Shown here: in pieces, positions 3,462 to 4,489 of the stretch
Numbering within the stretch: the stretch's first letter is position 1
Layout: the number at the start of each line of letters is the position of its first letter
Virus record (IMG/VR): IMGVR_UViG_2648501498_000015
DNA: 4,938 bases
Strand: one strand, 5' to 3'
From: a virus
Lineage: Duplodnaviria > Heunggongvirae > Uroviricota > Caudoviricetes
Program-made: the position numbers and the translations under genes
Notes under the pieces: model-generated
The model's database searches: none
The model's input: the letters and a program-made list of their open reading frames with translations, nothing else
Told to the model about the DNA's origin: nothing

Positions 3462-3564
3462 ATGACTGAAATCACGCCAGTACAGTAAACGCGCTGGTGG
3501 TTGTGAATACCGGTCTTTCAGCTTGCTGGCTTTTTCGACAAGAGTTATTGGTGTGTCACGTTAA

Positions 3565-3957
3565 CCGGAAAAAGGAAAGTTTGAGAAACGCGATCTGGCA
3601 CAGGCGGTTATTAATGCTGCCTACCTGGTGGCCTGTGCAGATGGTGAATGTGAGGCTTCCTAGAAAGCGAAGATCGAACAGGTACTGCGTAATCAGCCTG
3701 CGCTGTCCGCGTTTACGTCAGAAATTAATGCGATTAGCGCAACCATTATCGGTCAGCTGGATACGAACTTTAAAATTGGTCGTCGTGCGGCGTTACGTGA
3801 GATCGAGGATGTGAAACACGATACGCGTGAAGCGGAAGATGTGCTGGATGTGGCGGTGGCCATTGCGGAGGCAGACGGCGAAATTGAGCCGGAAGAGCGC
3901 AAGGTGCTGGAAGAGATTGCCGGTGTTCTGGGTCTTCGTCTGGAGAATCACCTGTGA
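3565..3957 (+). pseudogene. TerB-like (tellurite-resistance TerB / DjlA N-terminal-like) ORF remnant: no start codon, in-frame amber at 3661-3663
   Basis: The frame translates to PEKGKFEKRDLAQAVINAAYLVACADGECEAS*KAKIEQVLRNQPALSAFTSEINAISATIIGQLDTNFKIGRRAALREIEDVKHDTREAEDVLDVAVAIAEADGEIEPEERKVLEEIAGVLGLRLENHL*. It contains two copies of the hydrophobic-A-x-A-D-G-E...acidic motif typical of TerB domains. It is bounded upstream by TAA 3562-3564 with no ATG/GTG/TTG before the TAG, and no start codon after it until GTG 3811. Confidence 0.4.
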
Positions 3958-4085
3958 CGGTAAAACTGCGCCTGGCTGTGGCTGCACTCCTGCTGTTTCT
4001 GGTGGTGATGGTGGATTTCACCAGCAGAATCATGTCGGTGCTGGCGGATGGGGTGCTGATCTGCGGCATTGTGGTATTGCTGTAG
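3954..4085 (+). CDS. candidate 43-aa hydrophobic small protein (single predicted TM helix)
   Basis: GTG at 3954 overlaps the TerB-like stop (GTGA); GGAG at 3942-3945 lies 8 nt upstream. Translation VTVKLRLAVAALLLFLVVMVDFTSRIMSVLADGVLICGIVVLL, stop TAG at 4083-4085. A GC-rich hydrophobic ORF like this can arise by chance, so this is low confidence. Confidence 0.2.
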   Translation: MTVKLRLAVAALLLFLVVMVDFTSRIMSVLADGVLICGIVVLL

Positions 4086-4400
4086 CCGGTGATAAAAAGA
4101 AACAGCCTGCATAATGCTTGATTTTTTTATTTGCTGTTTATTAAAAATACTACTGCATGGTGAATCCCCCTGTGCGGAGGGGCAATCAGCAAGTAGGTAT
4201 ATGTGATAATCGCGGATTCAGGTGCTGATACTGAATTCACCGGGAGGCACCCGGCACCATGCAAGAAAAAGAATGTGCATGCAAAAATGCCCGAATGGGT
4301 TCGGGCAATAGCATGAGATACTGATATTGTTGTGTTGTTATCGTGTGGATTTTAACCAGGGTTTATCAGGCTGCGCAACTGCGTGGCCTTCTTCATTTCT

Positions 4401-4447
4401 TGGGCTGTAGTCCCCGTGTGTCATTCAGGCTTCCGGACTACAGCCCA
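4401..4447. repeat. 13-bp perfect inverted repeat with 21-nt spacer, 43 nt upstream of the esterase start
   Basis: TGGGCTGTAGTCC (4401-4413) and GGACTACAGCCCA (4435-4447) are exact reverse complements. No T-run follows, so it is not a canonical intrinsic terminator. Confidence 0.6.
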
Positions 4448-4489
4448 CTCCATATCTGATTTAATACACTATCCCGGCCGGGAGGAATA

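Follow-up and report, generated by a model that had tools for sequence, protein, structure and literature searches.

The late region of Stx phages is arranged in the order Q, PR', tR', tRNA genes, stxAB, a pair of small RNA (sRNA) genes, and nanS-p. In phage BP-4795, for example, Q is followed by stxA1, stxB1, an sRNA block composed of an STnc100 and an AgvB-family gene, and, directly downstream of that block, the esterase gene yjhS. The slot between Q and the esterase can also hold another cargo. JLK-2012 and PPyecE_EH1910 carry tciA-tciB there, annotated as an intact tciA (143 aa, TciA/TerB-like) and an intact tciB (54–55 aa) joined by a GTGA overlap, and in JLK-2012 three tRNA genes precede tciA.

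The sRNAs of this region have been described as well. PasD, an Hfq-associated and northern-validated sRNA of EPEC, is related to STnc100; pasD2 and pasA flank the sialate esterase gene, with PasD/STnc100 upstream of the esterase (Zhu, Shabalina & Storz, bioRxiv 10.64898/2026.05.13.724894). A position between cargo and sialate esterase is likewise found downstream of stx2, where STnc100 lies at a distance of 75 nt (PMC12370729). For O157:H7, the published layout is a convergent sRNA pair in the moron site 3' of PR' and before a conserved phage ORF. AgvB (EcOnc01), the most abundant of these sRNAs, binds Hfq, targets the R1 seed of the host's core sRNA GcvB by base pairing, and relieves the repression of dppA (Tree et al. 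2014, PMC4104026). Its 5' end has been mapped by RLM-RACE in O157, to which it gives an advantage in bovine rectal mucus (PMC4104026).

Here, we compare these systems with a stretch of 4938 nt from the virus record IMGVR_UViG_2648501498_000015 (the window, meaning this whole stretch), which comes from a lambdoid E. coli prophage and comprises its late-regulatory region. An initial annotation had set apart positions 3462–4489 as a cargo slot between PR'-tR' and nanS-p, filled with decayed and unassigned content. The slot is borne out by the relatives, as BP-4795 has stx1AB and others have tRNA genes at this place. The decay is also real as far as the coding content is concerned, but "unassigned" does not apply: the protein genes belong to the named tciA/tciB moron cassette, and the sRNAs have been described. 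We consider it very probable that the interval is a standard lambdoid moron slot holding a dead tciAB pair and an STnc100/AgvB block in which AgvB is intact. Its content can be thought of as two layers. The first is a tciA-tciB cassette, encoding a TerB-domain protein and a small DUF3927 membrane protein, that is dead in a widespread allele. The second is a conserved block before nanS-p with an Hfq-type sRNA of the STnc100/PasD family on the + strand and, in a subset of loci including the window, a convergent AgvB. A known slot with a broken tellurite-resistance-like pair and two known sRNA genes makes the interval an ordinary one; every element of 3462–4489 falls into a known family and, apart from a deletion found in this single sequence, there is no departure from the described systems.

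The left part of the window opens with a match to sok RNA (1–138, Rfam cmscan), overlapped by a hok-type ORF that ends at 288 in the ORF list. Two small ORFs separate the latter from a DUF968 gene (1103–2152), which is followed by rusA (2165–2539), both named after annotated homologues in relatives. The Q antiterminator (2536–3357, PF03589, 164 bits) is of the long, 273-aa form and has an extra DnaJ zinc-finger-like match that remains below the Pfam threshold. The lambda-like late promoter PR' follows on the + strand, with TTGATT (3363–3368), a 16-nt spacer, and TAAATT (3385–3390), and shares the core GGTAAATTTG.C..AACGATGGG with phage lambda in an alignment to lambda PR'. Close to it, on the same strand, lies AACGAT (3397–3402), presumably a sigma70-dependent pause element; this role and that of the −10 hexamer are assigned from established lambda biology. 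A tR'-like intrinsic terminator, ACCCGTCGCCAGGCGGGT, was found by terminator scan at 3438–3455 (+ strand) and extends to 3462 with its T7 tract. All parts of a lambda-type Q/PR'/tR' module (the Q protein, the −10 with AACGAT, and the terminator) are thus present, and a PR' transcript ending at tR' would be about 66 nt long if its start is placed at 3397. At the other end, on the + strand, nanS-p has a Shine-Dalgarno sequence GGGAGG and its ATG at 4490 (together 4480–4492), a DUF1737 match starts from residue 3, and relatives are annotated at this position with a SASA family carbohydrate esterase. Q, PR', the terminator at 3438–3455, and the DUF1737 esterase start at 4490 together show that the interval 3462–4489 was rightly delimited. 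As a whole, the window had no match above 98.9% among complete E. coli genomes.

Several other signals were considered and set aside. Rfam matches to suhB/mmgR over 3385–3470 (20.5 bits against a gathering score of 41), to isrK (26.5 against 50), to rsmX, and to the snoRNA sR55 all stay below the gathering scores and were taken as chance. A single sigma70 scan site, inside tciA on the − strand, is no more than expected from shuffled sequence and was not used.

Directly after the terminator, positions 3462–3576 (+ strand) have no coding assignment. Between 81 and 115 nt of this leader recur with 90–100% identity at loci carrying other cargo, where they lie 762–3633 nt upstream of nanS-p. This recurrence marks the leader as the slot's conserved left border, outside the cargo proper. 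A 105-aa ORF at 3497–3814 (frame 2) was treated as spurious, since it has its start in this border and crosses the TerB frame in a different register. The window's slot differs from that of Stx phages in having tciAB as cargo instead of stxAB, and from that of JLK-2012 in lacking tRNA genes. The absence of both stx and tRNA genes, already noticed in the initial annotation, was reproduced here: ARAGORN returned no tRNA in the window, and tblastn with StxA1 and StxB1 of BP-4795 as queries gave no match ahead of nanS-p in the window.

The first cargo gene is a tciA pseudogene (3565–3957, + strand, frame 1). Its TerB domain, which had been spotted as a TerB-like remnant, is genuine, with a match to PF05099 that scores 44.4 bits (cut-off 24.4) and covers profile positions 2–109 of 118. 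Gene order and the GTGA overlap with tciB are those of JLK-2012 and PPyecE_EH1910, and nucleotide identity with these cassettes amounts to 93–95% over 3576–4085. In contrast to these phages, the window's tciA lacks the first 17 codons and contains an amber codon. The frame is closed upstream by TAA 3562–3564, and translation up to the amber codon TAG 3661–3663, which replaces GAG in the intact tciA of JLK-2012, offers no ATG, GTG, or TTG as a start codon. Homology to intact copies begins only at about 3576 (codon 18) and the sequence 5' of that point is unrelated, meaning that the ATG and codons 1–17 are missing and the 5' end has been replaced. Consistently, the tblastn alignment with JLK-2012 TciA covers residues 18–143 only, with 97% identity and one stop. 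In each of the three genomes with inspected annotation, PGAP lists the TerB gene as "pseudo, internal stop". The tciA family corresponds to phrog_632 ("tellurite resistance", category moron). PADLOC gave intact TciA only a partial match (14.6 bits, E = 0.003) and no defence-system assignment.

The second gene, tciB (3954–4085, + strand), is the 43-aa ORF of the initial annotation, where it was offered as a possible membrane protein. The ORF proved real, as it matches DUF3927 (PF13064) with 44.2 bits against a cut-off of 25, and its family, phrog_1470, is listed as "TciB-like", again in the category moron; PADLOC found no match for intact TciB. It is shorter than the full-length protein (54–55 aa). 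An amber codon, TAG 4083–4085, stands in place of TGG (Trp44) and thereby removes the C-terminal WPVIKRNSLHNA. On read-through (...VVLL*PVIKRNSLHNA*) the normal tail reappears and the ancestral frame continues to TGA 4119–4121. The commonest form in related loci is an intact 55-aa TciB ending in ...VVLLWPVIKRNSLHNA.

Taken together, the missing start and codons 1–17 and the amber codons at 3661 and 4083 leave tciA and tciB inactivated or truncated. A recombination joint at about 3576 has probably taken away the tciA start and the first 17 codons, and amber codons further along interrupt both tciA and tciB. The truncated TciB could nonetheless retain some activity, and one may go further and regard the tciAB remnant as working protein cargo, expressed late under Q as the TciB peptide alone or as a C-terminal TerB fragment (GTG 3811, 48 aa). 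The 43-aa ORF keeps its transmembrane segment, its DUF3927 match still spans profile positions 2–41 of 53, and a plausible Shine-Dalgarno sequence GGAG (3942–3945) is located 8 nt 5' of its GTG. PGAP, moreover, annotates it in relatives as an intact CDS (WP_001344632.1), and the allele is common. Nonetheless, we find this reading unlikely. The tciB stop is a nonsense change to TAG where the commonest 55-aa form has TGG, tciA lacks a start codon and contains two stops in frame, and the GTGA overlap of the tciB start with the tciA stop suggests a translational coupling that is now lost. The abundance of the allele, on the other hand, is explained by the recent spread of near-identical sequences (at least 99%) rather than by selection.

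This spread is visible in complete genomes, where 401 of 5,426 E. coli genomes contain 80% or more of the interval, the best 30 of these 401 matches being 99.1–99.9% identical over the full interval length. We surveyed 87 loci, 80 of which were collected from IMG/VR through the N-terminus of the esterase, the rest being annotated records and the window. Their cargo is highly variable: tciA with tRNA genes in 29 loci, tRNA genes only in 28, tciA only in 19, stx in two, and other content in nine. An intact tciA occurs in 23 loci, the exact double lesion of the window in 13, and other defects in about 12, with tciA absent from 38. The question raised in the initial annotation, whether an intact TerB-like gene and a small membrane ORF are found at this slot elsewhere, is answered in the affirmative by these 23 loci and the intact 55-aa tciB copies. 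Because intact pairs exist at the slot elsewhere and the TerB similarity is real, the interval is neither a purely non-coding spacer devoid of intact ORFs in all relatives nor the site of a spurious match. The sRNA block is retained ahead of nanS-p in loci whose cargo differs greatly.

The remaining 400 nt or so had been put down as structured non-coding DNA. Structured they are: 4086–4489 is strongly so, and the segment 4150–4270 folds at −44.2 kcal/mol (z = −3.1). What was missed is that they hold two described sRNA genes. Overlooking them is easy when a slot is read for ORFs alone and sRNA genes are on the opposite strand. The window shares the published layout, with STnc100 (+ strand) convergent with AgvB (− strand), between tciB and nanS-p and 3' of PR'.

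The STnc100/PasD-family gene (4129–4282, + strand) was recognized by cmscan with Rfam RF02076, whose match extends over 4129–4318 and scores 119.4 bits (gathering score 47). As in STnc100 and PasD1-PasD2 of EPEC, the covariance-model match is full length and the multibranched core (4154–4263) is intact. The core is closed by the helix TGCATGGTG/CACCATGCA, in which 4154–4162 pairs with 4255–4263 (inverted repeat I5). It agrees with the core of undeleted relatives at every position (100% identity) and, whatever the cargo, was found upstream of nanS-p in nearly all surveyed loci. Like PasD2, the window's copy lies between the cargo and the sialate esterase. It differs from the STnc100/PasD genes at its 3' end, where the intrinsic terminator (GCCCCTCTCCGGAGGGGC followed by U6; model positions ~175–206) is absent, as the 38 bp containing GCCCCTCTCCGGAGGGGCATTTTTT are gone. 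The closest undeleted relative accordingly reaches 146.2 bits with RF02076, compared with the window's 119. The 3' part of the window's match is, in fact, the reverse of the AgvB terminator without a U-tract. Reading from the sequence, the best −10 candidate for an STnc100 promoter is TTAAAA, which agrees with the consensus at three of six positions. The elements on the + strand would be read from PR' only with Q antitermination; STnc100 may also have a weak promoter of its own from which they are read.

On the opposite strand, agvB (4282–4343, − strand) encodes an anti-sRNA that sponges GcvB. Its match to RF02702 scores 92.8 bits (gathering score 56, E = 1.1e-17) and covers the full model (1–62), with 61 of 62 positions identical to the consensus; an additional AsxR match (43 bits against 63) overlaps AgvB, reflects the related family, and was discarded. 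The best blastn-short match is the O157:H7 copy, 100% identical over 61 of 62 nt. As in that copy, the window's AgvB has the CACAACA seed, a terminator, and a convergent placement just upstream of the conserved esterase ORF. It differs from it in that the U-tract is U5 followed by G instead of U6, and in that its partner sRNA is without a terminator. The terminator hairpin itself, found by terminator scan, occupies 4307–4288. Upstream of the RNA, a putative promoter region (4344–4390, − strand) contains TTGCGC, an 18-nt spacer, and TAAAAT, the latter 5 nt before the RNA 5' end. It was read straight from the − strand and had been missed by the consensus scanner, the −35 hexamer agreeing at only three of six positions. 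In the locus survey, AgvB and the hairpin downstream of it occur together as one block.

The 5' seed of AgvB comprises RNA nt 2–21 (window 4342–4323), with CACAACA, the consensus of GcvB R1 targets, at nt 10–16. It pairs with nt 66–85 (R1) of MG1655 GcvB at −19.4 kcal/mol, a value equalled or bettered by 39 of 2000 composition-matched shuffles; since CA-rich sequences in general pair fairly well with the GU-rich R1, this test is only moderately discriminating. A full-length AgvB-GcvB duplexfold ignores intramolecular structure and was uninformative, so that the seed-only test was used instead. By its sequence, AgvB is intact; it is the element most likely to be functional and the probable live cargo of the slot. 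By extension from the O157:H7 copy, for which the sponge mechanism has been demonstrated, AgvB of the window would be made from its own putative promoter, its CA-rich 5' end would pair with the R1 seed, and the pairing would relieve the repression that GcvB exerts on mRNAs for peptide and amino-acid transport, such as dppA. Hence, the suggested cargo of unknown function under Q-dependent late control has to be revised. The families have names, and AgvB, which is antisense to Q-dependent transcription, ends at a terminator of its own, and has a 5' end known from mapping in O157, would not depend on Q.

With both protein genes broken and the STnc100 terminator deleted, the interval might also be viewed as an inert, decayed spacer devoid of any functional element. 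This appears highly improbable to us in view of the 61/62 agreement of AgvB with the Rfam consensus and its intact seed and terminator, the STnc100 core that is 100% identical to undeleted relatives, and the persistence of the block before nanS-p despite very different cargo. What looks like empty cargo rather carries agvB, a documented prophage RNA that reprograms the host's GcvB regulon, and the importance of the finding lies mainly in correct annotation. A strain with this prophage is to be scored as AgvB-positive because agvB is present in the slot, even though the protein annotation shows a pseudogene and a tiny ORF.

The one feature that sets the window apart is located at the junction of the two sRNA genes. 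Relatives have two copies of AAAAATGCCC around 28 further bases, whereas alignment with strain 2013C-4830 places a single copy in the window at 4283–4292 (no strand applies) and shows the loss of 38 bp (AAAAATGCCCCTCTCCGGAGGGGCATTTTTTATGGGTA). The lost bases are the STnc100 terminator. Among the 40 matches listed for 4215–4350, all span 174 bases compared with 136 in the window and align in two pieces. No copy of the 36-nt junction turned up in the 5,426 complete E. coli genomes, in 48 of which the undeleted junction was found as a positive control, nor in GTDB representatives, IMG/VR, or JGI metagenomes. A slippage deletion between the 10-bp direct repeats AAAAATGCCC could have removed the terminator; the loss is either such a private event or an assembly error. 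The shorter U-tract of AgvB (U5 and then G, with U6 in relatives) is a consequence of this adjacent deletion. The deletion has probably disabled STnc100 as a discrete sRNA, with AgvB remaining essentially intact.

A more far-reaching consequence would be a rewiring of the pair. Reading through from STnc100 or PR', transcription of the + strand would run antisense across agvB and its promoter and either silence AgvB, by transcriptional interference or duplex formation, or yield a longer chimeric RNA, which we judge rather improbable. A non-overlapping tail-to-tail pair would thereby turn into an overlapping sense/antisense pair with the GcvB sponge switched off, for example, on prophage induction, and to this we likewise give little credence. 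In its favor, the remaining + strand hairpin (GCCCGAATGGGTTCGGGC) is followed by AATAGCA with no T-run, and the next + strand terminator, at 4368–4389, has an interrupted T-tract in this allele. Moreover, the two genes of undeleted relatives abut and do not overlap (in locus L001, STnc100 at 4668–4858 and AgvB at 4859–4920). However, an STnc100 promoter is putative at best, with the 3/6 TTAAAA as the best −10 candidate; PR' transcripts end at tR' in the lysogen; and the deletion, found in no other sequence searched, may have arisen recently as a neutral lesion or in the assembly as an error. If it is real, this private loss of 38 bp is a small natural experiment on how convergent sRNAs share terminators, limited to a single sequence.

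Between agvB and the esterase, the nanS-p leader contains two further elements on the + strand. The first is a conserved intrinsic terminator found by terminator scan (4368–4399, hairpin 4368–4389), consisting of AGGCTGCGCAACTGCGTGGCCT followed by TCTTCATTTC. Its hairpin and T-run occur in most types of nanS-p leader, the T-tract being interrupted in the allele group of the window, and 23 loci have TTTTTTCATTTC at this terminator. The second, at 4401–4447, is a conserved hairpin with a fully complementary 13-bp stem and a 21-nt loop (inverted repeat I1).

The possibility that this loop works as a translational switch of nanS-p was examined and rejected. Positions 4419–4436 are 72% complementary over 18 nt to the region of the Shine-Dalgarno sequence and start codon (4478–4495), and one apparent compensatory change (TGTCAT/ATGACA versus TGCCAT/ATGGCA) speaks for it. 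The duplex energy, however, is no better than that of shuffled loops (538/2000 and 607/2000 as good), and a third lineage has no matching change.

The stem itself is another matter. In nine distinct sequences, drawn from three lineages, 87% of the cells are paired, and sliding the 3' partner brings this down to 29–45%. Both sides have changed in three of the pairs, and the G-U pairs fit an RNA of the + strand only. This is modest evidence, from the alignment, for a real RNA hairpin in the esterase leader; that it acts in cis on esterase expression, as an element not described so far, is conceivable but rather improbable.

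At the convergent sRNA genes upstream of nanS-p, STnc100 (RF02076, + strand) and AgvB (RF02702, - strand), 38 bp are deleted between two copies of the 10-bp direct repeat AAAAATGCCC, which leaves a junction at window 4283-4292. The deletion takes away the terminator of STnc100 and shortens the tail of AgvB by one U; relatives have the deleted stretch (e.g., at 4822-4859 of the related locus L001). The junction itself found no match in complete E. coli genomes, GTDB representatives, IMG/VR, or JGI metagenomes.

At its other end, STnc100 is preceded by promoter-like motifs (window 4118-4155, upstream of the core), namely a -35 of the TTG type (TTGATT or TTGTCT), separated by a 17-nt spacer from a conserved TTAAAA/TTAGAA motif. 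The same arrangement recurs at homologous positions in five related loci (L002 and L024-L027), whose cargo differs. By these candidate motifs, the STnc100 transcript would begin around position 4154, close to the closing stem, whereas the Rfam model begins at 4129.

Further downstream, a + strand terminator (4368-4399) lies upstream of the nanS-p leader hairpin. Its tail reads TCTTCATTTC in the window's allele group (seven loci) but TTTTTTCATTTC in most relatives (23 loci), so that, judging from the tail, termination ahead of nanS-p may be weaker in this group. The hairpin itself (4401-4447, + strand) is a perfect 13-bp stem with a 21-nt loop, kept across three leader lineages; it displays a few compensatory changes, and its G-U pairs are + strand-specific. 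A pairing between loop and RBS, proposed for this hairpin, performed no better than shuffles.

Downstream of Q come PR', which has an AACGAT pause element like that of lambda, and then tR' (3397-3462). This layout predicts a short RNA of about 66 nt, a putative counterpart of lambda 6S RNA or of StxS of Stx phages. A direct repeat, TTTTATGCCTGA (3408-3419) and TTTTATGACTGA (3458-3469), places one copy after each of the two leader hairpins.

In the decayed moron cassette, both inactivating nonsense codons are amber (TAG), arising from GAG in tciA (3661-3663) and from TGG in tciB (4083-4085). Their shared type is probably a coincidence; no suppressor tRNA lies within the window.

The antiterminator Q (2536-3357) is of the long form (273 aa). 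A sub-threshold match to the DnaJ CXXCXGXG zinc finger (27.3 bits vs 32.7) covers residues 171-218 and overlaps the beginning of the better of two reported Antiterm (PF03589) stretches (178-265).

Finally, the left end (1-288) holds a hok/sok-type toxin-antitoxin, comprising an Rfam sok match (73.3 bits) that is truncated at the edge of the window, together with a mok/hok ORF (76-288). A Hok/Gef family protein is annotated at the equivalent place in a close relative (L006, 427-582).
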